Virus record (IMG/VR): IMGVR_UViG_3300009685_000011
Coordinates: 1 to 64,000 of that record
Length of the DNA: 64,000 bases
Strand: one strand, 5' to 3'
From: a virus
Lineage: Duplodnaviria; Caudoviricetes
Both the position numbers and the translations under genes were made by a program. Positions 3 to 19,800 of the stretch are shown one piece after another. The first letter of the stretch is position 1. Each line of letters opens with the position of its first letter. The notes beneath the pieces are model-generated. The model saw only the letters and a program-made list of their open reading frames with translations, was not told where the DNA came from and did no database searches.

Positions 3-3000
3 GGTGATTTAAAATTTATCGCAAAAGGAAACAAAATAGTTCCTCTTCTTAAGTTTGACTTTAATAAAAAGACCAGATTTGAACACCCCAAAGAGATAAA
101 CACTGATGATTTGATTGAGGCTCTTAAAAAAGCAAGGATTAATGTCTTTAAAGATTGGGTAGGTCAGGAGGTTTTGTTTCCTATTATATTTAACGGAGGG
201 CTTCAGTTTAGCAAAGTAAACTTTAATGATTTTTATCTTGACCATCACCAGACTACTTATCGTCAAGTTAACGTAGAAGGTAGTAATGAATTTGGCCCAA
301 TCAAATCTCTTTTGTTTGATGTTGAAACCCAAGCAGATCAAATAATCAAAGAAAGAGAACAAATACAGGAAAATCCTGTATTTGGAAGTCTTCCTATTGA
401 GAAGGATTCTATTCATTCTACTCTTGACGTAATTAAAGAGTTTCCTACTTTAATCAATAAAGTAAAAGGAATAAATAACGATGTTCTGGTTATTTTAAAC
501 TCTCTTTTAGAGAACAAACAAGTACAAGAAAGACTAAAAGACTCCACTGTAACTTTTACTACACAATACGGGCAAGACTTTAAGGGTATCTCTGGCGGTA
601 AAGAAATACTTGTAAACTTTTATCTACATACCAACCCTGAATTTTTTGTAGAATTAGTTGCACACGAAGTCATTCATACACTTACAGCAGACTGGGTTAC
701 TTCCAATTCTACTGACCCATTAGTAGAAAGATTGGAAGAACTTGTTAGACAAGTTCCTGAGTCTGTTGTGAATCTTATTGGAGACCAAGGATATGGTAAA
801 GATGATCCAAGATTCAAACTCGAAGTCTTGGCAAGACTTAGTGATCCCAAGGTTGCTAAGGAATTAAAAAAGATAAAAACAGGAAAGAAGAATTTCCTTG
901 ATACCTTAAAAGATATTGTAAAAGAAATACTCGGTAAAATATTCGGTATTAACAGTCAGTCTACTTTGTATTCAGACTTCCTTGAAAATCTTATCGAAAT
1001 CAGTACCAAGGTTAAAGAGAAAAAAGAACACACTTCTATATACGATCAGTTTAGTATATCTGATCTTGGAGATCTTACTTTTGGTTATTCTCAAGAAGAT
1101 GTTGACACTATTCAAAATAAATTCAGCCCTGTTTATTTGGAACAAGCCATTAATAGACTGAATGGTGAAATATTTCATTTTATTCACTCTAAAGGTGGAA
1201 GTAATCAGTTTCTTAATGGAGAAGTTAGTTTTGATAAAGTGTTCTTGCACTATTATCAATCAGTAGTAGATTATCTAAAAGCCAACGAAGGTAAGGTAGG
1301 AAAAGAAGAACACGACTTCTTGTTTGAGTTTCTTCTTAAAAACAGAGACTTTGTAAAAGACTACTGGATAGAAAATACTAATCTGGCTTCTTTGAGAAAA
1401 CCAAAGAAAGGAGAATACATATCTGATAAAGTTGTAGAAGACTATGAACCTTTAAGTGATCCTAATGAAGTCACAGATAGTGAAAACGAGGAAAAAGAAA
1501 AAGACCTTCGTGATATAACCGGAGGAGAAGATATTAATGAAAAGACATTTGACTTTGACAGGTCTGGTGTAGAACAGTCTTCTTTAGAAGCAGCAGATCC
1601 TATCAGTAGGGCTTTTGTAAAAATGATTCCCAAGATTGAAAGAGGAGAAGAAGGTACTAAAATCTACTCTGATGAAGATCGTAAAAAAGCAATAGATAAT
1701 GGTGCTAAGTCAGATCATTTTGTTTCAGTTCCAGGAGGTTTCATTAAATATGAAACTGATGAGACTAACTCAATAGTTCTAAATGACTATACTCAAAACT
1801 GGAACCTGATGGGTATTCATTTTCAAGGAAAAATGTCCTTGGAAGAAATGCTTAAATCTATAGATGATACACCAAGTCTTATTGACGTAGTTCCTGAAAT
1901 TTATGTATTTAAAGACAGATTAAGTCTTGACATTAAAAACGATTCTCAATTTACATTAAATGCTTCTTTGGAACGTGCCTTTAAAAAAGCATTTGTAAAT
2001 ACTTATGTTCTTATTAGAAACGAAGATGGTAGACTTTACTTGGTGAATGAAAGTAAAGACCTCACCACGATAGGAAAACGAAAAATAGACTCTGGTTTTC
2101 TTCAAACTATAGATGAAAAATATCCTCAGTTCTACGAAAGAGAAACAGATGAAGTTAGAATCAAGGCTCTTGTAGAATTTCTTAGAAGCAGAAAAGAAAA
2201 CGAGAACAAATCTCTTAGTGAACTTTTGGGGTTTGGATTTCACCCCAAGACCATCAAAAACAACGGGGTATTTACTTCGGAGATTACAAACTTTGACGAG
2301 CATCTTGAGAACATGTTCACTAACACTGAACTTGTTAATGTTCCTATTTCTATCTCTGAAATAATATTTAAAGGAACTTATGTAGGAAACAAAAAAATAG
2401 ATGGTGCTGCTGGTTTAGCCAAATCAGTTCTTAAACTGGAAGATAAGAATCGTCCTCTTAGTGCTACCACAGTGATTAAAAACGCAGAAGGAGAAAATCA
2501 ATCTACACTGTCTGTTCTTAACAGTATTCTTCAGTATAGAGAAATCTTAAACAACGCTCAGACCATTGAAGAACTTAACGAAAAAATGGAGAGGACTAAA
2601 AACCCTCTGTTTAATTATTCGTTGACAAAAAAAGCACTGTTCACTACTCTGTTAAACGAAAGTACTAATGAACTTGTAGAAGAAAGAACTAACGTTAAAG
2701 TAGATATAGGTCTTTTTAACGGATTCAAACAAGAGCAAAAAGGTAGAGCAACAAAAGGTAAACTTACAATTGATCTGGAAGGTGCAGATTGGTTAATGTT
2801 GAATTTTGTAGGGATGATTAAAGGAGGGATTATAGAAAATACTCGTGCTGAAACAGCCTCTACTTCTTACTATTTCAAGTTGACTAATTGGAGCAACGAA
2901 GTAGGTACGAGTGATACTCCTTTGAAAATTAGTGATGTTTTTTCTCAATACAACAAGAGAGAAGGAAAAATAAACATCTCCAAAGAATCAAAGATATTTA

Positions 3001-6000
3001 ATATTTGGTCAGATTACTTTAAGGGTAATCTTGAGAGGATGAATCTACAACAGTCTGACAAGTGGGGTCTTTTTGACTTCTTATCCAGGGAAGGAAAAGA
3101 GATTCTTAGAGACGGTCTTAACGAAGATGTTTTACTTGATGAACTTAACTCTTTCTTTAATAAAGAGTCAGACGAGTTTAGAAGAATGTTCGATCAAGAA
3201 ATAGGTGGTTATGAAGCAATAGTAGGTGATGCTATGGTCTTAGATAAACCTACTTACGGAGATAGAGAACTCTGGAACAAGATTAAAGGATTTGAAGAAG
3301 AGTACAAGGCTTTCTATGTATTGAATTCAATGATTATTCACACCGAAGAGACTATTCTTTTTCAGGGTGATCTTAGCCAAACTCCCAAGTACTACAAGAG
3401 AGCAAAAGGTGTACAATCTACCGGAACTCCTGTAAGTCAATCTCCTTCATTAGTTCAATGGGTAAACAAGTCTCTTGAGAATAATTCTATTGCTGTTGCT
3501 TTAGGATTTACACCCACCCAAATAGGTAAGAACTATTTGAGTTCCACTATGAAGGATGATGAAAAACCTTCTGCTTACAAAGACAGGTTCTTAGATGGTT
3601 TTGTAAAGTCTCAAAAACTGTACTATAGTTCAATCGGAGTAAATATCTCCGAGGATCAACTTAGAGAAACTGCACAAAATCTTCTTGTTCCCAAAACCAA
3701 AAAAGGAGAAGGTAACTATGGTATGGTAAATATTGGAGATGGTGCTGCGTATACCCATCCTGATTTTCATTATGCTACTCTCAAATTAATAGGTAACATT
3801 TCTACTGAACAACAAAAAGTTTATGAGGCTCTTGTACTTGATACTATTAAAAACTCGAAAGAGTATTTTGGAATAGAATCAAGACAAATTACAGAATCTG
3901 AAGAAAAAAAGATTAAGGAAGGTTTTGCTCTCTTAGCAGAGGGAAAAGGACAGTTTCCTCTCATTAAGTTTACTTATCGCAATACCATGAGTAACTCTGA
4001 TTCCGTAGTTAAGGAAGAGGTCATGGATAAGTTTGCTTTGTTTCCTTTGTTTCCACAGTTTGTTCACGACAAACCTGTAGCAAAAGAAATGCTGAAAAGC
4101 ATGATGAAAGAAGGTCTTGGTTATGTAAAGTTCCAGTCAGGTACCAAGATTGACACTACTCCTCCTATTGATTTCATAGGCATGGTTGAAAAAGGAGAGG
4201 TAGATGTTAGTTTTGAAAACTTCACACATGAACTTTCTACAGAATTTTTAAGAGAACAGATCAAAACCCCCAACAAGCACAAAACTAAGAACACATTTGG
4301 ATCTCAGGTTAGAAAAAATATCCTGGCAGAACTTGGTCAGGTTAAACTCTCACGAGAAGAAAACAAGGGAGACTTTAAAAGAAAATGGGAAAAACTAAAC
4401 CAGGAATTTTCTCTTGCACTTAAAAGAGAAATTCTCGGCAGGTTTAAAATCAAAGAAACTGCTCCTGACCAGTGGGATTTCACCAAAGTAGATAAAGCAC
4501 AAGTTGCTCAAATTCTTTTGGAAGAGTCCACCAGAAGAGAACTACCTTATAATCTAAAAGTGTTCTTTGATAAGTATCGCAGAGGAATATTTAAAGAAGC
4601 ACAGTTGATTTCTGCGTATGATCTTTTTGAATCTTCTATGGGTGCTCCACAGATTCAAAACTTGCTCGCATCTATTATTAAGAAGATCAGTATTCAAAAA
4701 CTGAAAGGCGCTCAATACCGTCAGGTAGCAAGTTCTCCTTTTGATCGTAAAATTAAATCAGAAGGTAAAACAAGAGAATTGGGTTTTTACGAATTTAACG
4801 AAGAAGGTACTAAAGCAGCAGAATGTAAAATAGGTATGGGTGGAGATTTCCTTAATCTCTTAAACCTTAAGGACATCACTAACTATATAGAGTACAGACA
4901 ACAAGAAGATACCATTTTTAACAGACTTAGTGCCCTCAATAAAAAACTTGAAGATGATGCTTGGGTAGAAGCACACAAAGATGTTCTTACAATAGCATCT
5001 TATCGTATTCCTAACCAAGGTCATAACTCTGACGAAGTGTTTGTCATTCGAGAGTTCTTACCTCCTATGCACGCTGGCGAAATTATCCTTCCTCCAGAAG
5101 TAACTACTCAATCTGGTACTGACTATGACTATGATAAAATGAGTGCTATTGTACCTTCTATTAATAAAGACGGTACTTTAGTAACAAAAGGTTCTAAAGG
5201 TATTCAGAACGAAATGATTAAGACTTTTTCTGATATTCTTTTAGACCCTGTTAATTATTGGAAACTGATTGTACCTAACTCCAATCAGATTATTTTCGAT
5301 CTATTAAAAGAAAAGTTACTTCCTAAACTTTATCCCAACCTAAAGTTAGATTCTTTCTCACCATCAGAGATTATTACTCTTGGAAGAAACTATCGCCAGT
5401 TTAAATCAGTACAAGGTAAAAACCTCTTAGGTATAGCAGCAGTGTGGAATCCTTTTACTACCATACTTCAGAATCACAACATTCGTGTAAACTCGATCTA
5501 TAAAAAGAAAGTAGGATTTGGTACAGAGGCTTTTTTTATTGAGGTTCCAATTAACCCTTTGTTTGGTTCTACTGACGTTTCCCTTTACACCAAGGACAAT
5601 CTTAATAAATTAGAAGTCATATCTCAACTTATTAACGTTACCGTAGATATGCCTTCAGATGATACCTTTGGTATGTCTGTGTTTACACAAGATGACTTCA
5701 GTGCTTTTATTTACGGAATGTCTCTTTTGAATTACGGGTTTGAGAATTCGATGATGTTTTTTCACCAACCTATTATTTATAAATTTAAAGACCTTATAAG
5801 TAAAACAGTAAGAAAAGGTTATAAAAAGAGTCGTGCTAATCTTATGGTTGCACACAAACTTTTAGACATTGAGTTAATCAAAACTCAAGATGGTAATATT
5901 AACGTTCGTAAATCAGAAGCAAATCTTTTTAAAAAACTAACAGAGATAGAAAAGTCTCTTAACAGTGAACTTTTAGCAGGTCAACTCAAGAGCGTAGAAG

Positions 6001-8786
6001 AAGCAGTTCAAGTAGAAAGATTTTCAGATCAACAAAAGGCTGTTTTAGCACACTACTTAAAGTTGTTAGATCAGGCTAATCAAGTTAGAACTGTACAATC
6101 TGCTCTCAACTTTGATACATCTCCTGATAACAACCTTGCCAAAACAAGAGATAGACAAAAAGATTTTATAGAAGCACAACTTTCAGAAATCATTCCTTAT
6201 GAAAAAATAATCGAGGTGAAAGAAGATTCTGTTATCTCTGGTCTATATGTAAGTGTTATTTACGAAAGTCTTGTTTCCGAGATATTTCCGGTGCTTTATT
6301 CCAGTAAAACTAAAGAAGCATTTGACCAATTAAGGGATAAGTTTGTAGAACACTCTGAAGTAGCGTTTAGAAAAGCCACAAATGACTTCCTTCTTGCGAT
6401 AGTTCAAAATTACGGTACCTACAAAAACCAGAACATTACAGACTTTACTCTACCTTATATAAGAGGAGATAAAAAAGCAGACCTTATCAGAGAAGCAACC
6501 AAAATTAAAAAACAACTAAAGGAACAAGGTAAAAGACTTAGACTTTTAGATATTCTTGTAGCCAACACTTCAAGAAAAGGAACTCCTACTTTATCTAATC
6601 CTCAATTAATTATGGGTATGGAGAACTCCTCTGGAGATAAAGATCAGATCACAGAAGAATTCAGAGAACTTCTTAACAACCCTAAGACTAAGGATTTTGC
6701 AGAAACACTTGCTATTGTAGGATTGGTTCAAAGTGGTTGGTCTAAATCACCACTGTACTTTTCGGATGTTATACCTGAAGAGTTTATTACTCCAATAATT
6801 AATAAAGCCCTCAAAGAATACCAAGAGTTATCCAAAATAGATAAAAGAGGTTTCATCATTGCTTTTAAAAGTAATTTTGAAGACTACCAGGCTAAATCTT
6901 TAGGTGGTAGAGGTAACTATGAAGATGCTTATAGAATAATGGACTACACCGTTAACGTTCAGCCTACCATAGAAGCAACAAGAAAGGCTTATGAAGAAAA
7001 GAAAAAAGAAGATGAATTTACAGAGTATGAAGTTATTGAAACTGAAACCAAACAGTTAGGTGGTGGAAACACGATTGATATAAGTCAATTTGTTAACCAC
7101 TCTGGAGGTGCATTGGGAGCAGATAGTGCTTGGGATGAGATAGGTAAAGAATTTGGAATGCTCACCAATAGACACTATTACTTTAAAGACAAAACTCCAA
7201 AAGGCAATATTGAAATTACTCAAGATCAATTTGACGAAGGTATAAAAAAAGCAAATAGTGCTGCCAAAGCAACTTATGGGTTTCAATATTCTTTTAGTGA
7301 TAATAAAGTAGGCAGATTATTGTCTCGTAATTGGCAACAAGTGAAAAACAGTGATGCTGTTTTTGCTATAGGTAAGATTGTTCAAAAGGGAGACAAACTA
7401 TTTGATGATGACAGAATTGCATTAAAACCTGCTGTCAGTGGAGGTACAGGATATGCTGTAGAAATGGCAATTCAAGAAAACAAACCTGTTTATGTATTTG
7501 ACCAAAATAAAAACCAGTGGTTTACTTGGGATGGTTCTGATTTTATTCAAATAGAGACACCGACTTTAACCAAGAATTTTGCAGGAATAGGTACAAGACA
7601 GATCAACGAACAAGGTAAACAAGCAATAAAAGATGTTTATCAAAAGACTATAGAACAAGGTGTACAACCAGATCCAACTTTAGGGTACAATCAAGAATCT
7701 TTAGAAGCAAAAGAAATACAAATCAGTTATGGATCAGAAGACAATTACTTGGAGGCACTTAAAAAAGTGTCTGAACAAAGAGGAAAAATTAAATGGGAAG
7801 ATGTATTTAGAAATTACTCCAGATTTCCTCAAAGAGTTAAAAACGCTCTTACACGTTCTTCAACATTACGAGAAAATGATAAATTATTTTCCGGTGGATC
7901 ATTTGAGACTTCCGGGAGAAGAATAGAATCTATTCAAGATTTAGCAGATTTATATCTGGTTCACAGAAGTCCTACTATTGAAAAACTACACTATATCTTT
8001 TTGAAAAACAATGAAATTGTAGCCACTCATGCTGCCACAGCGGGATTAGTAAACAGGACTGCTAAGTTTAATAAAGGGTTGTTTGAAAAAACCTACGAAG
8101 AAAGTGGAGCAGACTCAGTTTATTTACTACACAACCATCCTTCTGGAAATCACCTGCCTTCTGATGCTGATTTGTTGATGACTCATCAAATTACCAAAAG
8201 TAGTAACGTAAATTTTAAAGGACAGTTAATAATCAATACAGATAAATTCTCCTTTATCCCTGCAACAAAGGATATATTTAAATATTTGGAATATGAAGAA
8301 GTAGATTACAAGAAGAAACCAGATGTTTTATTTAAAACAAGGATAACCTTAGGAACTTCTACAAAACAAATTACCAACTCGTTAAAGCAAATTGGAGATA
8401 TTTTACTTAAAGAACCAGGTATAAATTCTGTAATTTACTTAGATGTTTATGCTACAATAGTTGGTTACGATTCATTTACTGACGGAGATGTTTCTAAAAT
8501 TGATTTTCAAGACCAAATGAAAAAGAAGGGTGCTTATTCTTATGTAATCTTTAGTCCTTCTAAAGAAAGTAATGATGCAGTAGAGTCTTCCAGCAATCAT
8601 GTCAAAGGTTATTCTTCCTTCTATCTTGAAAATGGACAGATAAAAGCATCTCTTAGATTTGATAAAGAGTTTACCAATCAGGTTGATTTGGAGCCTAACC
8701 AAATACAGTTTTGGGAGAAGGTGTTTTTTCAACCTGAAGATGTCTTGGATACTATTACACAACCAAAAATATGTACTAAGATGTAA
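3..8786 (+). CDS. Giant virion-packaged RNA polymerase, crAss-like (phi14:2 gp66-type), 5'-partial; extra zincin-like, SLOG-like and JAB/RadC domains
   Basis: Frame is open from base 3, so the start lies upstream of the window. Motif YRIPNQG...EFLPP...GEIILP.EVTTQSGTDYDYDK with DYDYD at 5121-5135 matches the crAss-like RNAP DFDID-type catalytic loop. HEVIH at 663-677; HSGGALGAD...SGGTGYA at about 7098-7460; HNHPSGNHLPSDAD at 8130-8171. Confidence 0.9.
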   Translation, partial: GDLKFIAKGNKIVPLLKFDFNKKTRFEHPKEINTDDLIEALKKARINVFKDWVGQEVLFPIIFNGGLQFSKVNFNDFYLDHHQTTYRQVNVEGSNEFGPIKSLLFDVETQADQIIKEREQIQENPVFGSLPIEKDSIHSTLDVIKEFPTLINKVKGINNDVLVILNSLLENKQVQERLKDSTVTFTTQYGQDFKGISGGKEILVNFYLHTNPEFFVELVAHEVIHTLTADWVTSNSTDPLVERLEELVRQVPESVVNLIGDQGYGKDDPRFKLEVLARLSDPKVAKELKKIKTGKKNFLDTLKDIVKEILGKIFGINSQSTLYSDFLENLIEISTKVKEKKEHTSIYDQFSISDLGDLTFGYSQEDVDTIQNKFSPVYLEQAINRLNGEIFHFIHSKGGSNQFLNGEVSFDKVFLHYYQSVVDYLKANEGKVGKEEHDFLFEFLLKNRDFVKDYWIENTNLASLRKPKKGEYISDKVVEDYEPLSDPNEVTDSENEEKEKDLRDITGGEDINEKTFDFDRSGVEQSSLEAADPISRAFVKMIPKIERGEEGTKIYSDEDRKKAIDNGAKSDHFVSVPGGFIKYETDETNSIVLNDYTQNWNLMGIHFQGKMSLEEMLKSIDDTPSLIDVVPEIYVFKDRLSLDIKNDSQFTLNASLERAFKKAFVNTYVLIRNEDGRLYLVNESKDLTTIGKRKIDSGFLQTIDEKYPQFYERETDEVRIKALVEFLRSRKENENKSLSELLGFGFHPKTIKNNGVFTSEITNFDEHLENMFTNTELVNVPISISEIIFKGTYVGNKKIDGAAGLAKSVLKLEDKNRPLSATTVIKNAEGENQSTLSVLNSILQYREILNNAQTIEELNEKMERTKNPLFNYSLTKKALFTTLLNESTNELVEERTNVKVDIGLFNGFKQEQKGRATKGKLTIDLEGADWLMLNFVGMIKGGIIENTRAETASTSYYFKLTNWSNEVGTSDTPLKISDVFSQYNKREGKINISKESKIFNIWSDYFKGNLERMNLQQSDKWGLFDFLSREGKEILRDGLNEDVLLDELNSFFNKESDEFRRMFDQEIGGYEAIVGDAMVLDKPTYGDRELWNKIKGFEEEYKAFYVLNSMIIHTEETILFQGDLSQTPKYYKRAKGVQSTGTPVSQSPSLVQWVNKSLENNSIAVALGFTPTQIGKNYLSSTMKDDEKPSAYKDRFLDGFVKSQKLYYSSIGVNISEDQLRETAQNLLVPKTKKGEGNYGMVNIGDGAAYTHPDFHYATLKLIGNISTEQQKVYEALVLDTIKNSKEYFGIESRQITESEEKKIKEGFALLAEGKGQFPLIKFTYRNTMSNSDSVVKEEVMDKFALFPLFPQFVHDKPVAKEMLKSMMKEGLGYVKFQSGTKIDTTPPIDFIGMVEKGEVDVSFENFTHELSTEFLREQIKTPNKHKTKNTFGSQVRKNILAELGQVKLSREENKGDFKRKWEKLNQEFSLALKREILGRFKIKETAPDQWDFTKVDKAQVAQILLEESTRRELPYNLKVFFDKYRRGIFKEAQLISAYDLFESSMGAPQIQNLLASIIKKISIQKLKGAQYRQVASSPFDRKIKSEGKTRELGFYEFNEEGTKAAECKIGMGGDFLNLLNLKDITNYIEYRQQEDTIFNRLSALNKKLEDDAWVEAHKDVLTIASYRIPNQGHNSDEVFVIREFLPPMHAGEIILPPEVTTQSGTDYDYDKMSAIVPSINKDGTLVTKGSKGIQNEMIKTFSDILLDPVNYWKLIVPNSNQIIFDLLKEKLLPKLYPNLKLDSFSPSEIITLGRNYRQFKSVQGKNLLGIAAVWNPFTTILQNHNIRVNSIYKKKVGFGTEAFFIEVPINPLFGSTDVSLYTKDNLNKLEVISQLINVTVDMPSDDTFGMSVFTQDDFSAFIYGMSLLNYGFENSMMFFHQPIIYKFKDLISKTVRKGYKKSRANLMVAHKLLDIELIKTQDGNINVRKSEANLFKKLTEIEKSLNSELLAGQLKSVEEAVQVERFSDQQKAVLAHYLKLLDQANQVRTVQSALNFDTSPDNNLAKTRDRQKDFIEAQLSEIIPYEKIIEVKEDSVISGLYVSVIYESLVSEIFPVLYSSKTKEAFDQLRDKFVEHSEVAFRKATNDFLLAIVQNYGTYKNQNITDFTLPYIRGDKKADLIREATKIKKQLKEQGKRLRLLDILVANTSRKGTPTLSNPQLIMGMENSSGDKDQITEEFRELLNNPKTKDFAETLAIVGLVQSGWSKSPLYFSDVIPEEFITPIINKALKEYQELSKIDKRGFIIAFKSNFEDYQAKSLGGRGNYEDAYRIMDYTVNVQPTIEATRKAYEEKKKEDEFTEYEVIETETKQLGGGNTIDISQFVNHSGGALGADSAWDEIGKEFGMLTNRHYYFKDKTPKGNIEITQDQFDEGIKKANSAAKATYGFQYSFSDNKVGRLLSRNWQQVKNSDAVFAIGKIVQKGDKLFDDDRIALKPAVSGGTGYAVEMAIQENKPVYVFDQNKNQWFTWDGSDFIQIETPTLTKNFAGIGTRQINEQGKQAIKDVYQKTIEQGVQPDPTLGYNQESLEAKEIQISYGSEDNYLEALKKVSEQRGKIKWEDVFRNYSRFPQRVKNALTRSSTLRENDKLFSGGSFETSGRRIESIQDLADLYLVHRSPTIEKLHYIFLKNNEIVATHAATAGLVNRTAKFNKGLFEKTYEESGADSVYLLHNHPSGNHLPSDADLLMTHQITKSSNVNFKGQLIINTDKFSFIPATKDIFKYLEYEEVDYKKKPDVLFKTRITLGTSTKQITNSLKQIGDILLKEPGINSVIYLDVYATIVGYDSFTDGDVSKIDFQDQMKKKGAYSYVIFSPSKESNDAVESSSNHVKGYSSFYLENGQIKASLRFDKEFTNQVDLEPNQIQFWEKVFFQPEDVLDTITQPKICTKM

Positions 8787-8917
8787 TAGTTATTTTCTTT
8801 CGTTATATAACGATGAAAATATTTATAAGTAACCTGTAAATCAAATAATTATAAAGACTTCGTTTTACTTTTTAATAAAAATTACGATTTAATACTACAG
8901 AAAAGTAAAATTATGTT

Positions 8918-8925
8918 TACTTTTG
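8918..8925 (+). promoter_or_regulatory. Candidate Bacteroidota housekeeping-sigma -7 promoter element (TAnnTTTG)
   Basis: TACTTTTG in the AT-rich intergenic gap, 33 nt upstream of the RepL-like ATG; no clear -33 TTTG. Confidence 0.5.
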
Positions 8926-8958
8926 TAAAATATTTTTACATATAAACACATCTGTAAT

Positions 8959-9438
8959 ATGAATCCTTTTATCAGTCAAGAGTCATTTAAACTTAAAGTG
9001 TTAGAAATTAAAAAGACCACTCACAAGATAGACACGTCTAATATTCCTGAAGATGGAGTTATTGTAGGTGATTATGAAACAGTTACTCGATCTTTTTTAA
9101 TAGAACAACAGAAGAAAAAAAGCATGTATGATGTTCCTTATTTAGATAATATTTTATTTGGAGAACTTACGTCACGAAGTAGAGATTTGTTTCTTTATGT
9201 TTTAAATCACGCTCCGCAAGACTTGGACTATATCAATCTAAAGCAATCAATAGTTTGTAGGAATATCAGAATGAGCAAACCGACTTTAATATCTGCCATT
9301 AAAGAACTTTCTGATGTAGGGGTGATTTGTAGAAAATCACAATCTGAATACTGGATTAATCCCTATTATATTTTTAGAGGAAACAGAGTTAAATTTTATC
9401 AAGAAAACTATCCTAACAAAATAGAAAAACTTAATTAA
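8959..9438 (+). CDS. RepL-like winged-helix DNA-binding/replication protein
   Basis: C-terminal HTH-wing pattern SKPTLISAIKELSDVGVI...YWINPYYIFRG typical of the RepL family. Confidence 0.7.
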   Translation: MNPFISQESFKLKVLEIKKTTHKIDTSNIPEDGVIVGDYETVTRSFLIEQQKKKSMYDVPYLDNILFGELTSRSRDLFLYVLNHAPQDLDYINLKQSIVCRNIRMSKPTLISAIKELSDVGVICRKSQSEYWINPYYIFRGNRVKFYQENYPNKIEKLN

Positions 9439-9440
9439 CT

Positions 9441-10325
9441 ATGTGGATAAACATAATCACTGCTATAATCAATATTCTTAAATACTTATTTAAAAAGAAA
9501 GACCAGACTCAAGTAAATGAACAGGTATATCAAGAAATAAAAGATACTCCTAAAGTAGAAGAAATCAAACCAGTAGAAGAGCCTGTTAACCAAACAATTA
9601 ATCCAATACAATCTGTAGAACCTATAGGAACTGTAGAAACTGTAAAACCTAATCTTAATATAATCCAGAAGTTACTACCACCTAATCAGTATGTCCAAGA
9701 TTCAAAATTTAAACCTAATTCTATTTGTCTACACCATACAAACGGTCACTCTTGGCAGAGTACTTATAATTATTGGGCTTCTGACAACGGATTACGAGTA
9801 GCAACCCATTTTTTAATAGATCGAGACGGGAGTGTAATTCAGTGTATACCATTGGAAAAGGCTTGGGGGTTTCATATCAATATTGCCGCCAAAGACAACA
9901 AAATCCCAACCAAGTACAAAAATCTTGGAAGAAAATATGATATGCAATCAATTGGAATAGAATTATGTTCTATGAGTCAAGTTACTCCCTATAACGGAAA
10001 GTTTTTAGATACTTATGGAAAAGTATTTAAGGGAGAAATAACTAAATTAAATAAACCTTTTAGGGGGTTTGAATACTTTGAGTCTTACACTAAAGAACAA
10101 ATAAACGCCTTAGGATTATTACTTTTGCATTTACTTGACGAGTATCCAAAAATAAAAGAGGGGTTGTATGATAATTACGAAAATAAGTTCGATATTAACC
10201 AAGATGCATTAGAAATGAAACCTGGTATATTTTTTCATGTGAGTTATCGAACAGGTACTAAGTGGGATTTGTATCCACATTCGGGTTTAATAACAATGTT
10301 AAACGATTTAAAAAACAAAATATGA
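9441..10325 (+). CDS. N-acetylmuramoyl-L-alanine amidase (amidase_2-type endolysin)
   Basis: ICLHHT, ATHFLIDRDG...IPLE..W, SIGIEL, FHVSYR..KWDLYP Zn-amidase motifs; hydrophobic N-terminus plus low-complexity linker. Confidence 0.85.
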   Translation: MWINIITAIINILKYLFKKKDQTQVNEQVYQEIKDTPKVEEIKPVEEPVNQTINPIQSVEPIGTVETVKPNLNIIQKLLPPNQYVQDSKFKPNSICLHHTNGHSWQSTYNYWASDNGLRVATHFLIDRDGSVIQCIPLEKAWGFHINIAAKDNKIPTKYKNLGRKYDMQSIGIELCSMSQVTPYNGKFLDTYGKVFKGEITKLNKPFRGFEYFESYTKEQINALGLLLLHLLDEYPKIKEGLYDNYENKFDINQDALEMKPGIFFHVSYRTGTKWDLYPHSGLITMLNDLKNKI

Positions 10326-11206
10326 TAGTAGACAATGGAAAATATTATGTTTATAGACATGTAAGATTAGATACAAATCAAGTATTTTACATAGGAATTG
10401 GGAGTAAAGTTAACAGATCTAATGGAAAATCTATGTATCAAAGAGCATTTTCAAAATCAGATAGAAATAAGTTTTGGAAATCTATCGTATCTAAAACTAA
10501 ATACGAAGTAGAAATTTTATTAGAGTCAGATGATTACGAGTTTGTACAAAGTAAAGAAATAGACTTTATTAAAATGTATGGCAGAAGAAATACTGGTAAA
10601 GGCACTTTATGTAATTTAACTGATGGGGGTGAGGGGGTTATGGGAGTATGTTATTACACAACTGAAGAAATGGTCGATAAATTTAAACAAATACATGGCG
10701 ATAAATATGATTATTCTAAATTTATATATAATAATTTTCTTAAAAAAAGTACAATTATATGTAAAAAACATGGTGAGTTTTTACAAACCCCAGAAAATCA
10801 TTTAAAATCACAAGGATGCCAAAAGTGTGGAAACGAAAGTAGAGTAAGGAGAGAGAGTAAAATAAAAAATTATGCAAAAATATTTGTAGATAAATTAAAG
10901 CAAATCTACCAAGATAGATTTGATTATTCTTTTATTGAATATACAGGTCAACGAAACAGAGTAAAACTTATATGTGCTTTACACGGAGAGTTTACTCAAA
11001 CTCCTATGGATTTATTAAATGGTCACAGTTGTCAAAAATGCGGAAGAAGTAATATTTCAAAAAGTAAACGAAAAGGTTCATCGGAACAAATTGAATATAT
11101 ACAACAGCAACTGTTAATAGGAAAAAGCATACGCGAAATTAGCAAACAAGTTAATCTGTCACGGGATGTAGTTTCTTATATTAAAACTCACGGATATAAA
11201 GATTAG
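10322..11206 (+). CDS. Free-standing GIY-YIG-like homing endonuclease with two Cys/His-rich repeats
   Basis: YYVYRH...FYIGIG...R...E..FI..YGR N-terminal domain; two repeats Y(D/S)YS..Y......IC..HGEF.QTP..(H/L)L.G..CQKC. Start placed at the ATGA overlap with the amidase stop. Confidence 0.8.
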   Translation: MIVDNGKYYVYRHVRLDTNQVFYIGIGSKVNRSNGKSMYQRAFSKSDRNKFWKSIVSKTKYEVEILLESDDYEFVQSKEIDFIKMYGRRNTGKGTLCNLTDGGEGVMGVCYYTTEEMVDKFKQIHGDKYDYSKFIYNNFLKKSTIICKKHGEFLQTPENHLKSQGCQKCGNESRVRRESKIKNYAKIFVDKLKQIYQDRFDYSFIEYTGQRNRVKLICALHGEFTQTPMDLLNGHSCQKCGRSNISKSKRKGSSEQIEYIQQQLLIGKSIREISKQVNLSRDVVSYIKTHGYKD

Positions 11207-11615: not shown

Positions 11616-12359
11616 ATGGCAGATTTAATTTATCACGATTTAGATCTTGTAAGAGTCTCACAACTTAAACAAACAAGAATTCAAAACATCACCACAAGTG
11701 ATAGAACTACTTTAGGTAGTTCTCTTGGTGGTGGTAACACAGGTCTTATCGTATATGATACAGACTTAGATTCTCTTTATATTTGGGATGGGTCTGCTTG
11801 GGATGCAGTAGGTGTTACTGTTTCTGGAGCGATGACTCTTAAAGGAGTAGTTGCTCACAATGCTACTGAACCAGGATCTCCTTCTACAGGAGACTATTAT
11901 ATCTTTAGTTCAGCAGGTTCTAATACTTGGGAAAGTGATGAGGCTGTGGAAGCAGGCGACATGGTAGTTTGGGATGGTACCAACTGGAGGTACATAAATC
12001 GCAATGTTTACGATGCTACAGAAACCTTAGCGGGTAAAATCGAAATAGCAAATACGTCTGAAACTAATGCCGGATCAGATGATACCAGAGCAGTAACACC
12101 TGCTAAACTTGCAGGGTTTATTTCTAACCGTACTCTCGCTAAGGTTTATTTTGCGTCTTCAGTTTCTGTTACAGCAAACACCCCTTTCACAGTAACTCAT
12201 AACCTTGCTCTTCAGAACAGAAACGCTTTCACTATAAATGTGATGAACTCTTCTCACTCTGCCGTGTCTTTAGATGTAGACTCGGTAGATGCAAACTCTC
12301 TCACAATTACTTCGGCTGTTTCCTTAACAGGTCTCAGTGTTACCGTAATAGGATTCTAA
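11616..12359 (+). CDS. Tail fibre-like protein
   Basis: ATETLAGKIEIA...DDTRAVTPAKL phage tail-fibre repeat; GLIVYDTD...LYIWDG..W module; S/T/A/G-rich. Confidence 0.7.
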   Translation: MADLIYHDLDLVRVSQLKQTRIQNITTSDRTTLGSSLGGGNTGLIVYDTDLDSLYIWDGSAWDAVGVTVSGAMTLKGVVAHNATEPGSPSTGDYYIFSSAGSNTWESDEAVEAGDMVVWDGTNWRYINRNVYDATETLAGKIEIANTSETNAGSDDTRAVTPAKLAGFISNRTLAKVYFASSVSVTANTPFTVTHNLALQNRNAFTINVMNSSHSAVSLDVDSVDANSLTITSAVSLTGLSVTVIGF

Positions 12360-12593: not shown

Positions 12594-13796
12594 ATGATTA
12601 TACTTGATTCAACTACAAAAAAACTACAAGCGTATACTTCTGCTACACCAACAACAGACCTTACTTACTATGTGTCTTATATAGATATGTCTTCTTTAGC
12701 CGTATCTAATATAGCCTCCAGTAATGGGACTTTTGATGAAACAGAAACAGACATAGTATCTGCTCCAGGTGCCTCTACACAAAGGCAAGTTAAATATATG
12801 TCTTTGTATAACGCTGATTCTCAAATTCAAACCGTTACTGTAGTTTTAGATGTGTCTGGTACAAACACAGTTCTTGCTCAAGTCTTACTACAACCAGGTT
12901 ATACTCTTACTTACAATAATGACGGTAAGTGGGAGATAATCAATGGAGCACAAGTAATGGATGAGGGGTTTTTATTAAGCGGAGTAGCAGCAGAACCTTC
13001 TGCTCCATCAGAAGATACTATGTGGTTTTACGCTAAAAACATAAGTGGCAGAATGCTACCTAAATGGAAAGGGCCATCAGGTTTAGACACAGCAGTACAA
13101 CCTGGTTTGTTTCAGAATAACATTATGATGCTACTTCCACAAATCTCTACCACAATAACATTATGGGGTACTACTAACACATCAGTAGGTACTGTTTCTC
13201 ACCCCGCGCTTGCTGCTACTAATCTTAGGACTTCAATGCGTAGATGGATATGGACTTCTGCTGCTACTGCTAATGCGGCATCTGAAGGTAGAACAGTAGC
13301 AAGTTTAGTTTGGAGAGGAAATTCCGCAGGGTTAGGTGGGTGGTATTATGCTTGTAGATGGGCCATATCTTCTTCCACTGCTAATCAACAAGTGGCAGTA
13401 GGACTATGGAATGCAACAGGTGCTACAGCAACTACTACAGTACCCTCGAATTTAACTAACTGTATATTTGTAGGATGGGATTCAGCAGATACCAACTTAC
13501 AAGTAATGCATAACGATGCTTCTGGTACTTGCACTAAAATTGACTTAGGAGCATCTTTTCCTGCTAACTCTACTACGGCTGTTTATGAATTTATGATGTT
13601 TGCTCCCCCTAACGGATCTTCTGTATTTTATCGAGTAGTAAGATTAGACACAGGAGATGTAGCAGAAGGAGAAATTACTACAGACTTACCTGCTTCAACT
13701 ACGTTTTTAACTCGTCACGAGTATATGAATAATGGTGGCACTGCTGCGGCTGTAATTCTTGAAGTATCTCGTATTTATATTGAAACTGATTATTAA
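12594..13796 (+). CDS. Tail fibre/spike-like protein, possible receptor-binding C-terminal beta domain
   Basis: 400 aa, T/S/A/G-rich, PSAPSEDTMWFYAK fibre module, beta-rich C-terminus; positional context. Confidence 0.55.
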   Translation: MIILDSTTKKLQAYTSATPTTDLTYYVSYIDMSSLAVSNIASSNGTFDETETDIVSAPGASTQRQVKYMSLYNADSQIQTVTVVLDVSGTNTVLAQVLLQPGYTLTYNNDGKWEIINGAQVMDEGFLLSGVAAEPSAPSEDTMWFYAKNISGRMLPKWKGPSGLDTAVQPGLFQNNIMMLLPQISTTITLWGTTNTSVGTVSHPALAATNLRTSMRRWIWTSAATANAASEGRTVASLVWRGNSAGLGGWYYACRWAISSSTANQQVAVGLWNATGATATTTVPSNLTNCIFVGWDSADTNLQVMHNDASGTCTKIDLGASFPANSTTAVYEFMMFAPPNGSSVFYRVVRLDTGDVAEGEITTDLPASTTFLTRHEYMNNGGTAAAVILEVSRIYIETDY

Positions 13797-13800
13797 AACT

Positions 13801-16800
13801 ATGAACTGTAAACTTCCACACATATCAGCATTAGATAATTCCCGTCAGTTCTTAATTGATCTTGAAGCAATAGACGACTCTAATAAAATATTAGATGATA
13901 TCGCTTTTGACTCAATTGTTAAAGAATTAGAACAAGACAACATTAAAGCCTATCAGGTATCTGGTAAACCCTGGTTACGAGATGTAACTAAAGGAGGTGA
14001 AATTGCTATACCTAATATAGAGGTTTTAAACAAAATAGATCAGAAAAGAAAAGACTTGGGTCTTTACGAAGATCAGTTGAGTGCTGACTTGTCAGAAGAC
14101 AGTGACATTATTCCACCAAATGAACAAGTAGGTTATCAATTTAGAGTTGTTAATGCTTTACAATCGGACAAAGTAAGGCAGCCTAAATTAGATAATCTAC
14201 AGGGATTTTATAATGACCTTCAGAAACAAGGTATACCAAGTCAACAAATAGACTTAGTTAAAGATATTTTATCTGATGTTAAAGGAAGTGTCACTAAGGA
14301 CGATATTATTAAAGAGTTGCTGTTAAAATACAGTTATGGTGTTGAGATTGAAACATCCAAATACAAATATCCGTATAATGCTTCTGATCCTGATTACGAT
14401 AGTCAAGGAAATATTATTCACAACGGCGATCCAACTTCTTACTATTCTGACTTAACTGTAGGGCCAATTAAAAACTACAAAGAAAATAATATTATTGTTC
14501 CTGGTATTACTCCAAGTATCCGTGCGCACGGACAATTTTCTACAGATAATACTATTGGTTGGACACGGACATGGGAATATGATAGTATTCCTAACACTTT
14601 AATTATAGGAGAATTACAGTCGGACTTGTTTCAGAAAAGTAGAGATAAAGGTAATTTAATTTCAGCCGATTCTGAAGATTCTAATTTTGGAATTTTAGAA
14701 TTAGAAAACGGACAATTTGCTGTTGGATATTCTGATAATACAATTATTAATAAGTTTGATACAAGGGAAGAAGCAATTGAAGAAGCAACAAGATTAGTTA
14801 ATATAAAAAAAGATAATAATCAAAACAAATTTCTTCAACTCTTAAACAAAGATAATCAATGGGTTACATTCTTCACCCGATCAATTATCCAGGACAGTGC
14901 TAAAAGAGGTTATGAAAAAGTACTGTTTCCAACAGGTAATACTGCTGCTAAAATAGAGGGACATACTACTATAGAAGAAGAAGAAAGAACAATTAAAGAA
15001 GATATAGAAAAGATAAAAAAAGGTGACATTGAAACATTACGCAATAAGACAATTTCAGAAACCACTTCTCCAAAAGTAGAAAATCAACACGATTACCAAG
15101 GAACAACTAAAGAAGGAGAGAATTTTGTAAATTTAGATCGCACAAAGGGTTACAGCGCTCCAAGGCATTTACATAGATTTACATTAGAAGATTTAGACAA
15201 TCCTAATTTTGAAGAAAGGTATATATATTTTGAACCTACCAGAGATATAGTACATGAATACAGTTACGCGATAAGAGAAAACGGAAAGTATTATAAAAGC
15301 GTCGGGTTTATGGAAAGAGAAGAAATTACCAAAGAAGAATTTATTGAGTTGTATAAAGTAGAAAAAGAAAAACTCGATAAATTAATTAATAGCAAATTAC
15401 TTAAAAATCAAATTGAATACTTAGAAAACAAATTAAAGTATCTTAATACACACGGGTTTGGCGCATTACAACCTATTTTTAAATTCTATGAAGAAACAGT
15501 AGGTAATATTCTTAAAAAGAATTATAAAGATAAAGTCAATCGTATTACTGATGAGTATGGCAATCAGTGGTGGGAACTTAATATAGATAGAAGTAGGGAT
15601 TTAACTGATATAATGTTTCAATTTGAATCTTCTCAACTACCCATCGAAGTAACACCAGAACTAAAGTCTACATTAGAACAGTTTGCTAAAAAACTAAACC
15701 CAGACTTTAAAATAGAAGTTCTTGATGACCTACTTAAAACTAAAGGATTAAACGGTATTGCTAACTTAAAGAACTTTTCTATTCAACTTCAAAGAGGTAA
15801 AGAGTCAGCCTTAGCCGAAGAGGTAAGTCACTTTCTAATAGAGTTGATGGAAGATTCCAACCCTCTTAAACAAACTATGAGGGACGAGATCACAAGAACT
15901 CGACTCTACAAAATGGTTAGAAATAGTCCTGACTACAAGCAAGCCTATGGTAATAACGTAGATTTACTTAAGAGGGAAGCAATGGCTAAACTTGTCAGTT
16001 TGTATCTAACTGATAAAGAATTATTTAAATACTATAGTGGGTCTGACTCTTTGGTAGAAAATCTTGTAAGGTGGATCAAAGACTTCTTTAGATGGGTAAA
16101 AGGAAAGTCTTCTTCAATTGGTTCTTTTATTAAGGCTGCTGAAAAAATAGTAAACCTTGACACCGAAGGATTAACAAGAGATAGAAACCTTCTTGTAGAG
16201 CAAATGTATTCTTTTGGAGAATTTGCTCAAGAGTCTACCGTACTTACTACAGTGGGTAATTTAAATACTCGTCTTTACAATAAGGTCTACATAAATATCA
16301 GTGATACAGTACTTGACTCCAGTAATTATTTCTCTGGTTCCGAAAGCGAAAAGAAATCAGTATTAATGGGAGAAAATCCTGAAACACTTAAAGAGTTTTT
16401 TGCAAATGCTGACTTTACTCACTTGGGTAGAGAACTTGTAGACAAAGTAAGCACTCAAGGAATTACTAACGTAGAATTTTATACGTCTCTTCCTTATGAT
16501 GAGGTTTTAGTTGAAAGGTTTGATTACGCTTTTCCTGGAGCAGAGATTCACTTCTTAAATAAAAGACAACTTCTTGAAGATGAGGATGGAAATCTGATAG
16601 AAGTAATAACTAACACTACAGAAGACTTCTTGAACAAGTCTAAAGAGTCAGGAGAAAAAGCAGTCTTTATAGATAACAAACCTCCTACCAGAGAATTAAA
16701 CATCGAGTATAGAAACTATCGAAACAGCAGGGCTAAGGTTTACGAATCTTTCTTGGATAGAATTCGTAGAAAAGATTCTTCTGAACAAGACAAACTAAAA

Positions 16801-19800
16801 CTTGACACTCTAATTCAAGAACTTAAACAAGCAAACAAAGAGCCTCTTGTTGAAAAAATTAAACAAGCGTTTAATATCGTTAAAAGAGAGGTCAGGGGAA
16901 TTCAATCTTTGGAAAGAAGACTTGAATCTCAAGGTCTTGAAGAAGATGAGTCTATGTCTTTATTTAGAGATGAAGGAGACATTCTTCTTCCTGAAAATAA
17001 AGCACGTCAAGGTTTAGATTTACTTGATAAGGTAGAACGCTACGAAGAACTGTTACTGACGTATGTAGGTACAATAGAGTCTGTTACTGAATTTTTTAAA
17101 AGGAGAAATGCTTCTAATTACGAAGCAATCAAAGATAGGCTCTTATCAGGAACTCAAGAAAATCTTGACATAGCAATTCAAGAACTTTCGTTTGTTACTA
17201 AAATGGGTAACAAGTGGAAAGACTACGTAAACAAACTTAGAGAAGTGATTCGAGATACACCTAACACCAGACTTTTATACGATCTGTTGGGTGATCTGGT
17301 TACTCAAATTGATACTTCGAAAGACAAAAGTAGAAGTCTCGCAGTTCAAGTAATAGGTAATAAACTCGCGCCTGCTCTTGAAGTTTATAATTCTAATAGA
17401 CAAGCGGATGCCAAAGAAATGTCTGAAAGACTTGAAGAAGAAACAGATGAAGACAATAAAAAAAGAATGCAGAAGTCTATTGAATTTCTTGAAAGACAAA
17501 CCACAGCAGAAGATATTATTGACATTCTCAACGGAGAAGTTAAGGATATAACTCCTTTGACAGTATGGATAGAGCCACTTGCTAATACTTCAGACCCTTT
17601 AATAGCGTCCTTGGAAAAATTGCTTATTAAGTCTCAACTTGAAGTAGAAGTAGGTGAAATAGCACAGGCTCAAGAATTAGGAGAACTTGTTACCAAAGAA
17701 GAAAAAATAGTTTCTACTAAAGAATGGCAAGACAAAATCTTATACCTTGACAAGGTATATGTATGGGAAGGTTCTGGAGAAGAACGTAAAAGAGTTACTA
17801 AAGATGCCTGGACTTTCTTACATCCTTTTAAAAACGAATGGAAGAAAGAAGAAAAAGAAATAGAAATGCTTCAGTTCAAAGACAAATGGGTAAAAGCACT
17901 TCAAGACAACAGTGTTAGCGAAGAAAGAAGAGAAGAACTTAAAAAGGAATACTTTAAAAAGAGAGAAGAACTTGAAAACTTTCTTAATTTAAATTGGCAC
18001 CGTGAGTACTTACCAGAGTACTACTCAAAGTACAATGAACTTACACCTGATGAAAACTCAAAAGAACTTCTTGATGAAGTAAAAATGCTTCAACAGTCTT
18101 TGTTTAGTCAAATTGAAAACCTCGCACTTGAAGCAAGGACTCAAGAAGGAAAAATACTAAGAGACACAAATCACAAGATTGAAGTTCTTAAAACAGAACT
18201 TAAACTTTTAAAGAACGAATTTTACCCTGACGGTACTCCTAAGACAGGAAAAGAACTTGAGATAGCAAAACTTCTTCAAAAGAAATCTGAAATAGATCGT
18301 AGGTTTTATGATTATGACTATGACTATGCTCGCTTTAGAGGAGACTTTCATATTTTTATGGAAACCTTAAACCTTCCAGAAGACGTAAAAGAAACTCTTC
18401 GTCTTAAACTCAAAGACAATAACTTTACTGAAGTCTATAGATACGCTCGTAAAAAGAACCTCTTTTCGATTACTAATTGGTTGGATGACAACGCAGTAAC
18501 CCGGTATCACCCTGACTGGTATGAGCAAAGAAAAAACATATCCGAGCAGATAAGTTCTATTAGTGAGCAGATCATAGACATTACAGGTGCTCCTTATAAA
18601 GTAAGACTGAATGAAATATGGCAGGAACTGTTTGGACTTACTTCTTATCTTAGGGATGAAGATGGTATTTTTGATGGTATAATGGCAAGCACTACCGTTC
18701 AGTCCAAAGTTCAAGAATTGGATACTGAAATAGAAAGAATCAGAGAATTAACAAGAGAACACAATAAAGACATTAAAACCCCTATCCTCAAGGAGTTAAG
18801 AGAACAGTTGTCTGATCTCATAAAAGAGTTGGATGACATTCAATCTAAAAAAGTAACCGATTCTTATAAAGATCACTTTAATGAATTAATACGAGAATCA
18901 GGATTCGCTGATATTCATAACAAAGACACCAAAACTATTTGGATAGAAGGTATCAACATTCTTGAATTTATCAATTACGAGTCTTTTCAAAAAACTCTAA
19001 AAGAAAATCCAGAGCATCCTTTTTCAGTGTGGTTTAATAATAACCACTTTAGAAAAACTTATTTTGAAAATGGAGATGCTTACAAAGCATGGACACCTAC
19101 TTACATCTGGTTTAAGATAGAACCTTCTGATAAAAAATACGTATTACTAAGTCCTTCTTTTAAATATTCAAAGAGAATAGTTAAAAAAGAATGGGAAACA
19201 AAGAAAACCGAACTTACTTATAACTCTGCTTTGGATGAGTGGAATCCTAAATCTGAAGAATTTTTTAATCCTGATTATAACAAACTTTATTTAAGTAGTG
19301 ACCCTAAAGACAAGGCTTCTTTAAGAATTCTTAAAGCCCTCACAGACTATCATCTTACAACACAGGCTTCTACGAGTGTAAGAGAAGGACAAATAGGTTA
19401 CACCCTTCCTTACATTAAAAAACAAATGTACGAACCTGGTTATCTTAAGAGCCTCAAAAGGGATTTCTTTGACACTTCCAATAGATTTGAAGAAGGAGCG
19501 GGTAACTTTGACGATCAGGTTAAAAAAACAAACTGGCTTCAAAAAAACAAGACTAAAATTCTAAATTTCTGGAACAATCAGGAGCAAGAAGAAGACACTC
19601 AAGAAGAGTCACAAAAAATAATGAGAGTGGCCGTACCATTTACTCATTACCTTGAGCCAGAGAATACTTCGAAGGATGCTTTAATGAGTGTTATCAGATA
19701 TTCTGCTTCTACCAGAAAAGCAGACAAGATGATGAAAAGCCTACCTCTTATTAACTTGATTGAGGATTCTATTCTTAATTCTCCAAGGATGAAAAAAGGC

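Follow-up and report, generated by a model that had tools for sequence, protein, structure and literature searches.

A circularly permuted YpsA-like SLOG domain is an exchangeable cassette on a predicted crAss-like virion RNA polymerase

The window investigated here (64,000 nucleotides) covers the initial 64 kb of IMGVR_UViG_3300009685_000011, a 78.8-kb viral contig from IMG/VR that was judged to be approximately 55% complete and represents an uncultured phage recovered as a metagenomic contig from wastewater. The open reading frame (ORF) at its left edge encodes a giant protein in which a SLOG domain follows the body of a crAss-like RNA polymerase (RNAP). This SLOG domain is an optional, horizontally exchanged cargo module seated between two linkers, and it belongs to a large SLOG family without a covering Pfam model. 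By strong homology the carrier is a putative virion-packaged enzyme that would be translocated into the host. As cargo of the circularly permuted YpsA (cpYpsA) type on such a virion RNAP polyprotein, the domain may serve as an early-acting module of counter-defence or host manipulation directed at an ADP-ribose/NAD-type nucleotide, and we judge the chances of this proposal to be about even.

The domain order of the giant protein is a gp65-like zincin, the crAss-like virion RNAP, SLOG and a RadC JAB domain. The ORF is in frame 3 and begins at the contig edge, and a full-length version of the protein (P0123) has zero mismatches over the shared part and 458 amino acids (aa) more upstream. The contig start cuts the ORF and the head genes are not in the record; the contigs of relatives, which are 137-147 kb long, suggest a genome of approximately 140 kb.

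A profile made from residues 1401-2750 of P0123 and 69 homologs matched residues 682-1984 of gp66 of phage phi14:2 collinearly (E 8.6e-90, 289.6 bits). The gp66-type homology spans both barrel regions, and the DYDYD loop of the window protein aligns to the DFDID loop of gp66, in agreement with the D(F/Y)DxD pattern of the catalytic loop. A profile of the N-terminal 1400 aa found gp65 of phi14:2, in the region of its HEIMH motif (E 1.6e-8; database of three sequences); compared as a single sequence, the same 1400 aa matched neither gp65 nor gp67 of phi14:2 convincingly. A profile was needed to reveal the polymerase homology, since a tblastn search with the whole 2927-aa protein against phage records (E ≤ 1e-5) recovered matches to the SLOG part alone. 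A megablast search of the phage collection with positions 5000-9000 gave no match. In phi14:2, gp66 is a two-barrel RNAP with a DFDID loop that is packed in the virion and translocated into the host, and some phages have it fused to adjacent virion proteins, among them gp65 with its zincin (Drobysheva et al., bioRxiv 10.1101/2020.03.07.982082). Virion presence and translocation were shown for gp66 only, whereas the window phage is known from metagenomic sequence. The original prediction of a fusion to an injected protein was thus right as to the kind of carrier, and injection of this particular protein, together with its SLOG domain, would follow from the homology to gp66.

The same prediction had placed a SLOG-like domain at 7080-7670, and this domain is real. 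A family hidden Markov model (HMM) gives 7080-7658, corresponding to residues 2818-3010 of P0123, and the motifs quoted earlier are present there in frame 3 on the + strand, inside the giant ORF, together with GIGTR, which had not been quoted. A phmmer search with a 227-aa piece against 1.84 billion representatives yielded 1654 proteins (50%-identity representatives) at E ≤ 1e-3, of which 314 reached E ≤ 1e-30, so that a chance resemblance is out of the question; a separate search gave 542 proteins of comparable length. A size of approximately 200 aa is frequent in the family, although some of these small proteins are fragments from short contigs. In an alignment of 44 members, the window copy retains 23 of the 23 invariant columns. 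The motifs SGGAxGxD, GGTG and GIGTR are invariant across the 44, as is the GxD signature of the YpsA clade (G33-x-D35 in P0002 numbering), the GxD/E substrate-binding signature being G53/E55 in B. subtilis YpsA (PMC6459960).

Existing models recognised the family only in part. PHROG 768 ('DprA-like') was matched with an E-value of 4e-7. Pfam DprA (PF02481) remained sub-threshold with 14.6 bits versus a cut-off of 29.6, over a 31-residue stretch at GIGTR only, and so did Pfam cpYpsA (PF12694) with 13.6 bits versus 26.2; the best of the 44 family members reached E 1.3e-4 against PF12694. NCBIfam gave no match to the domain. PDB sequences searched with the domain and with the family profile gave chance-level matches only, and structure 3IMK, the best structural match described below, was not found by sequence.

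Structure prediction returned a SLOG fold. The AlphaFold2 model, made with the 44-member alignment, had a mean predicted local distance difference test score (pLDDT) of 91.1 and a predicted template modelling score (pTM) of 0.85. Its best structural match was 3IMK (Z 12.0, root-mean-square deviation (rmsd) 3.7 Å, 140 of 158 residues, 20% identity), which was also the top match in Foldseek (probability 0.95). Structure 3IMK is the founding member of the Pfam family of circularly permuted YpsA proteins (PF12694, formerly 'MoCo carrier'). The next eight matches were all SLOG structures with Z between 5.4 and 6.4: the LOG-like 1RCU, 2IZ5 and 1WEH, the DprA structures 3MAJ, 3UQZ and 4LJK, YpsA 2NX2 and ShosA 8ZVA. 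The alignment to 3IMK is sequential from end to end (model residues 15-212 with chain residues 0-157), whereas in the non-permuted SLOGs the alignment begins only at about chain residue 31-36 (at residue 36 in YpsA 2NX2, Z 6.0) and leaves the last strand and helix of the model unmatched. The modelled domain therefore shares the permutation of 3IMK, with strand 1 and its glycine loop (FAGIGTR) at the C-terminal end. Overall, the model is a three-layered alpha/beta Rossmannoid SLOG fold, nearest to the circularly permuted YpsA type. The YspA/DprA/LOG pattern proposed originally holds at the level of the SLOG superfamily, but the nearest kind is cpYpsA and not DprA, LOG or ThsA.

With cpYpsA the domain has the fold, the order of the elements and the SGGxxGxD, RN-helix and GGT-type loops in common, but it stays below the Pfam threshold and has an additional beta-hairpin that follows the FAIG strand and precedes the GGTG loop. 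The LOG phosphoribohydrolases (Z 4.7-6.4) share the SLOG fold, and their RK and PGGxGTxxE motifs occupy the places of RN and GGTG in the window domain; they differ in their catalytic Glu, the counterpart of which varies among A, Q, E and S in the window family. The SLOG domain of ThsA from type I Thoeris, the ligand of which is an ADP-ribose derivative, is of the same superfamily, but its topology is not permuted and its SIR2 partner is absent from the window protein. Because it was a weak match (8BTO; Z 4.3, rmsd 5.0 Å, 121 residues), the analogy to Thoeris drawn in the original prediction serves as a lead only.

The domain is distributed sporadically. Eleven of the 88 nearest polymerase backbones carry the SLOG family, always after the RNAP, and 4 other backbones of the 88 have a Pfam-significant PF12694 segment instead. 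Among the 32 nearest polymerases, conservation of the backbone extends to the linker that precedes the SLOG domain, and the content beyond this linker varies: six have the SLOG domain, at only 38-44% identity to the window copy, and none has the JAB domain or the tail. The nearest SLOG carriers (P0251, P0252, P0259 and P0281) have backbones 28-69% identical to the window RNAP region (51-69% for three of the four), and copies in other contexts share a higher identity of 57-63% with the window SLOG. In a tree of 257 domain copies, computed with FastTree only, crAss-type, N4-type and small proteins are intermingled, and the well-supported branches alone require at least six changes for the 11 N4-type rows.

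The Pfam-significant cpYpsA segments follow the RNAP at residues 3143-3342 of P0260 and 3375-3558 of P0263. The motif order in both is RT.KN/ADATIAI, SAGEKLT, NIAGNG and then SGGQTGFDEAG, and with the SGGxxGxD loop last these segments may represent a permutation different from that of the window domain. The PF12694 segments of P0260, P0263, P0269 and P0274 all escape detection with the family HMM.

Exchange of the domain was also seen at the population level. Close relatives of the locus are present in independent wastewater, sludge, soil and aquatic sequencing runs, and an 8.8-kb contig of one of these (run X4) is collinear with the window across the SLOG and JAB domains. In a 44.8-kb contig from a soil run (X5), which matches the window at 5500-7067 and 7666-8788, 2377 other bases replace positions 7068-7665. 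As the two segments differ in length by 1779, a multiple of 3, the replacement is in frame. The flanks of this contig diverge in approximately 6% of the bases on the left (5500-7067) and 1% on the right (7666-8788), and an additional 6-base in-frame insertion is located behind position 7036. Since the junctions lie within the two linkers, directly after QLGGG and directly before QPDPTLG, exactly the SLOG domain has been exchanged. The contigs of two further runs (X6 and X7) likewise diverge at 6960-7067 and 7654-7705. A protein search with the RadC domain and tail did not have the soil variant among its matches, and scans of IMG/VR and JGI metagenomes for relatives of this RadC-tail part found none. 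The natural in-frame swap shows a slot under active turnover, as would be expected for an arms-race module.

The same family is found on a second class of polymerase. Klebsiella phage Pylas and Alteromonas phage PT15-A5 carry it on N4-like polymerases and are the only N4-like phages with the family in a collection of 50,697 phage records, and a crAss-like example is present in RefSeq phage cr109_1 (Table 1). Virion polymerases of the N4 type are T7-like and unrelated to the two-barrel enzymes. Depending on the protein, the SLOG domain is N- or C-terminal to the RNAP. The polymerase coding sequence (CDS) of cr109_1 is labelled 'DprA-like DNA recombination-mediator protein' in RefSeq, which is misleading for a polymerase. 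Translation with table 11 gives 47 in-frame stops in this CDS (L005:1-9795), in keeping with stop-codon reassignment.

Independent fusion to two unrelated virion RNAP classes would also be expected of a nucleic-acid-binding accessory, in which a DprA-like grip on single-stranded DNA (ssDNA) or RNA helps the virion RNAP to engage a single-stranded or melted promoter template. The N4 virion RNAP is specific for ssDNA templates (PMC13434306), several partner domains of the family are DNA enzymes, and the fold matches that come next after 3IMK include DprA structures (Z 5.7-6.2). The window domain has the Rossmannoid SLOG core, the SG-A-G-D loop and the RN helix in common with DprA/Smf (PF02481), and its GIGTR motif, where the sole Pfam DprA stretch falls, resembles the G-S/T-R loop of DprA. 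Its fold is, however, circularly permuted relative to DprA and scores Z ~6 there versus 12 for 3IMK, while SAM, DML1, the winged-helix part and any flanking DprA domains are absent. A constant helper of transcription is also difficult to reconcile with a domain that is sporadic on both polymerase classes, that varies in position relative to the RNAP, and that a close relative has swapped out in frame; nor is the window copy basic (pI 6.7, net charge 0). We regard a DprA-like role as rather improbable and rank it second, level with the ligand sensor considered below.

The proposal of a module acting on an ADP-ribose/NAD-type nucleotide draws on the partner domains. In 37 mid-size members, the Pfam partners were NADAR (n = 7), superfamily 1 (SF1) helicase (n = 3), AlkB-like (n = 3), ART-PolyVal (n = 2), Toprim (n = 2) and DUF1848 (n = 2), and RNase H was also among the partners acting on nucleic acids. 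Relatives of the window polymerase carry helicase, NADAR, AlkB-like, ART-PolyVal or cpYpsA domains in place of the SLOG domain. Phage NADARs are proven anti-DarT1 DNA de-ADP-ribosylases (PMC11825919; PMC11125620), and viral YpsA-like SLOGs have been predicted to process or counter ADP-ribose-derived signals that host immunity produces (Iyer et al. 2022, PMC9503650). This prediction and the position of NADAR as the commonest Pfam partner both support the link to ADP-ribose.

The sporadic distribution, variable position and replaceability of the domain argue for an accessory payload, and a core role in transcription appears unlikely. If the carrier is packaged and translocated with the DNA, the SLOG domain would enter the cell at the very start of infection, although probably in few copies only. 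The N4 virion RNAP is ejected into the host, where it uses ssDNA templates, and is present in 4 ± 1 copies per virion (PMC13434306). Were the carrier equally scarce, an enzyme or a local ligand sensor acting on an ADP-ribose/NAD-type nucleotide or adduct would fit better than the stoichiometric sponge for second messengers, such as glycocyclic ADP-ribose (gcADPR), or the coat for incoming ssDNA that was suggested originally. In ThsA such ligands are indeed bound by the SLOG fold, and phage sponges with other folds are known, but so few copies would neither titrate nor coat, and the ThsA SLOG itself resembles the window domain poorly. Although the copy number is taken from a different polymerase class, it weakens the sponge and coat, which we place last as very improbable.

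Several observations weigh against an ADP-ribose/NAD module. The window protein's own partner is RadC JAB and not NADAR, and neither NADAR nor Macro was found in the 78.8 kb of this phage, approximately 55% of its genome, so that the link to ADP-ribose is by association only; PF12694 was likewise not found in these 78.8 kb. SF1 helicase, AlkB-like, Toprim and RNase H partners act on nucleic acids, which makes DNA or RNA a possible ligand. The column of the LOG catalytic Glu is A in 13, Q in 13, E in 9 and S in 3 of the 44 aligned members, and catalysis, if any, would therefore be by other residues. Packaging of the window protein and survival of its C-terminal extension through processing are deduced from homology alone. 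Our literature searches found no assay of a phage SLOG. Finally, 64 of the 128 nearest representatives of the family have a crAss-type RNAP module, with the SLOG domain before or after it, and 9 have an N4-type backbone, but a share of about half for the crAss type among the closest members is expected, since the query comes from one.

The varying Glu column is compatible with a non-catalytic sensor, which would bind a host nucleotide or immune signal and switch its neighbours, namely the RadC JAB domain, zincin processing or the polymerase. 'SLOG sensor-activated systems' have been proposed for SLOG fusions to nucleic-acid enzymes in phages (PMC9503650), the SLOGs of YpsA and ThsA are thought or known to bind ligands, and low copy number would be no obstacle. 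Partners and positions are, however, so variable that it is difficult to imagine an allosteric coupling being conserved, and the many members of about 200 aa have nothing to regulate in cis, even if some are fragments from short contigs. A sensor is therefore considered as doubtful as the DprA-like helper, and the module acting on an ADP-ribose/NAD-type nucleotide is ranked first. In a more specific form, which we advance tentatively and hold to be clearly less probable than the general one, the SLOG domain is a catalytic eraser in a swappable payload slot that virion RNAPs of two unrelated classes have in common. Its target would be either an immune signal derived from ADP-ribose or an ADP-ribose adduct on the incoming nucleic acid, cleaved at DNA entry before any phage gene is expressed. 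If true, this would give the cpYpsA branch a new enzymatic activity and define a new class of pre-packaged anti-defence enzymes.

Viral SLOGs of the YpsA clade described previously (PMC9503650) are likewise phage-borne and at times fused to NADAR, helicases and other enzymes. They were, however, described as typically stand-alone, in contrast to the window SLOG, which is a cassette on a polymerase, and there is no mention of virion RNA polymerases or crAss-like phages in that study. Polyvalent proteins (PMC5512222) are also giant virion-delivered polypeptides with zincin, enzymatic effectors and variable payloads, and the window protein resembles them in that several unrelated domains are combined in one polypeptide, the composition of which varies among relatives. 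It differs in its backbone, which is a crAss-like two-barrel RNAP. In the portion of this 2017 survey considered here, RadC appears in conjugative elements only (PMC5512222), and a search of it for DprA, YpsA, MoCo and Smf, the word SLOG itself not being among the terms, found no SLOG domain. Homologs of the RadC JAB domain and tail (7932-8783) occur in classical polyvalent proteins with LPD, ART-PolyVal, ddrB-ParB and InPase domains.

The fold, the superfamily and a general ADP-ribose prediction are already published. New relative to the literature searched are the recurrence of a SLOG family without Pfam model on virion RNAPs of two unrelated classes, where it forms a swappable cassette, the evidence for an in-frame swap at the population level and the RadC JAB domain on a phage polymerase; no paper linking SLOG or DprA to crAss-like virion polymerases was found in these searches. 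Pre-packaged proteins are the only tools of a phage before transcription, and payload domains may thus show which defences have to be beaten in the first minute. The present family, with its 1654 representatives, has neither a Pfam model nor a solved member. It recurs on the predicted injected polymerases of crAss-like phages, which are abundant and include RefSeq genomes from the human gut, and on those of cultured N4-like phages, and the cultured carrier Pylas makes the question directly testable.

Table 1. Features of the giant protein in the window (nucleotide positions) and SLOG domains on polymerases of other phages (aa positions).
Feature	Position	Strand	Remark
Giant ORF	3..8786	+	5'-truncated by contig end; 2927 aa here, P0123 3385 aa
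HEVIH zincin motif in gp65-like N-terminal region	663..677	+	Motif seen; N-terminal profile matches gp65
crAss-like two-barrel virion RNA polymerase module	2829..6878 (limits approximate)	+	Profile match to phi14:2 gp66
DYDYD catalytic metal-binding loop	5121..5135	+	Aligned with gp66 DFDID 1361-1365
Upstream linker (…KQLGGG…)	7036..7079	+	Contains left cassette junction 7067
SLOG domain, circularly permuted YpsA-like Rossmannoid fold, 193 aa	7080..7658	+	From HMM and model
SGGALGAD glycine-rich loop, YpsA-clade GxD signature	7101..7124	+	S, G, G, A, G, D invariant
RNWQQVK helix motif	7326..7346	+	R, W, Q invariant; N, K nearly so
GGTG loop	7440..7451	+	Invariant; LOG catalytic Glu position four residues on is E here
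GIGTR, strand-1 glycine loop shifted to the C-terminal end by permutation	7584..7598	+	Resembles DprA G-S/T-R
Downstream linker	7659..7931	+	Contains right cassette junction 7666
RadC-like JAB domain	7932..8237	+	Pfam PF04002 E 1e-10; PDB 2QLC E 1.5e-5
C-terminal tail of unknown fold	8238..8783	+	Absent from 32 nearest polymerase homologs
SLOG of Klebsiella phage Pylas (Schitoviridae)	aa 983-1160		N4-like polymerase, 3819 aa
SLOG of Alteromonas phage PT15-A5	aa 1093-1252		N4-like polymerase
SLOG of RefSeq crAss-like phage cr109_1			crAss-like, 4328-aa CDS; SLOG after RNAP module (DFDID)

Elsewhere in the window, a second giant ORF of 2484 aa (13759-21213, +) is located downstream of the polymerase; it matched no PHROG and showed no convincing similarity to gp65, gp66 or gp67 of phi14:2. 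An ORF resembling HNH endonucleases (10262-11206, +; PHROG 681/559, E ~1e-20) is part of the late module, where it is flanked by an amidase/endolysin-like gene (9441-10325), the end of which overlaps its start, and a tail-fibre-like gene (11616-12359). On the opposite strand, rIIA-like (712 aa, PHROG 612, E 4e-45) and rIIB-like genes (36584-39867, -) are located in an early or replication arm that also contains thymidylate synthase, DNA polymerase, helicase, primase and exonuclease VIII-like genes.

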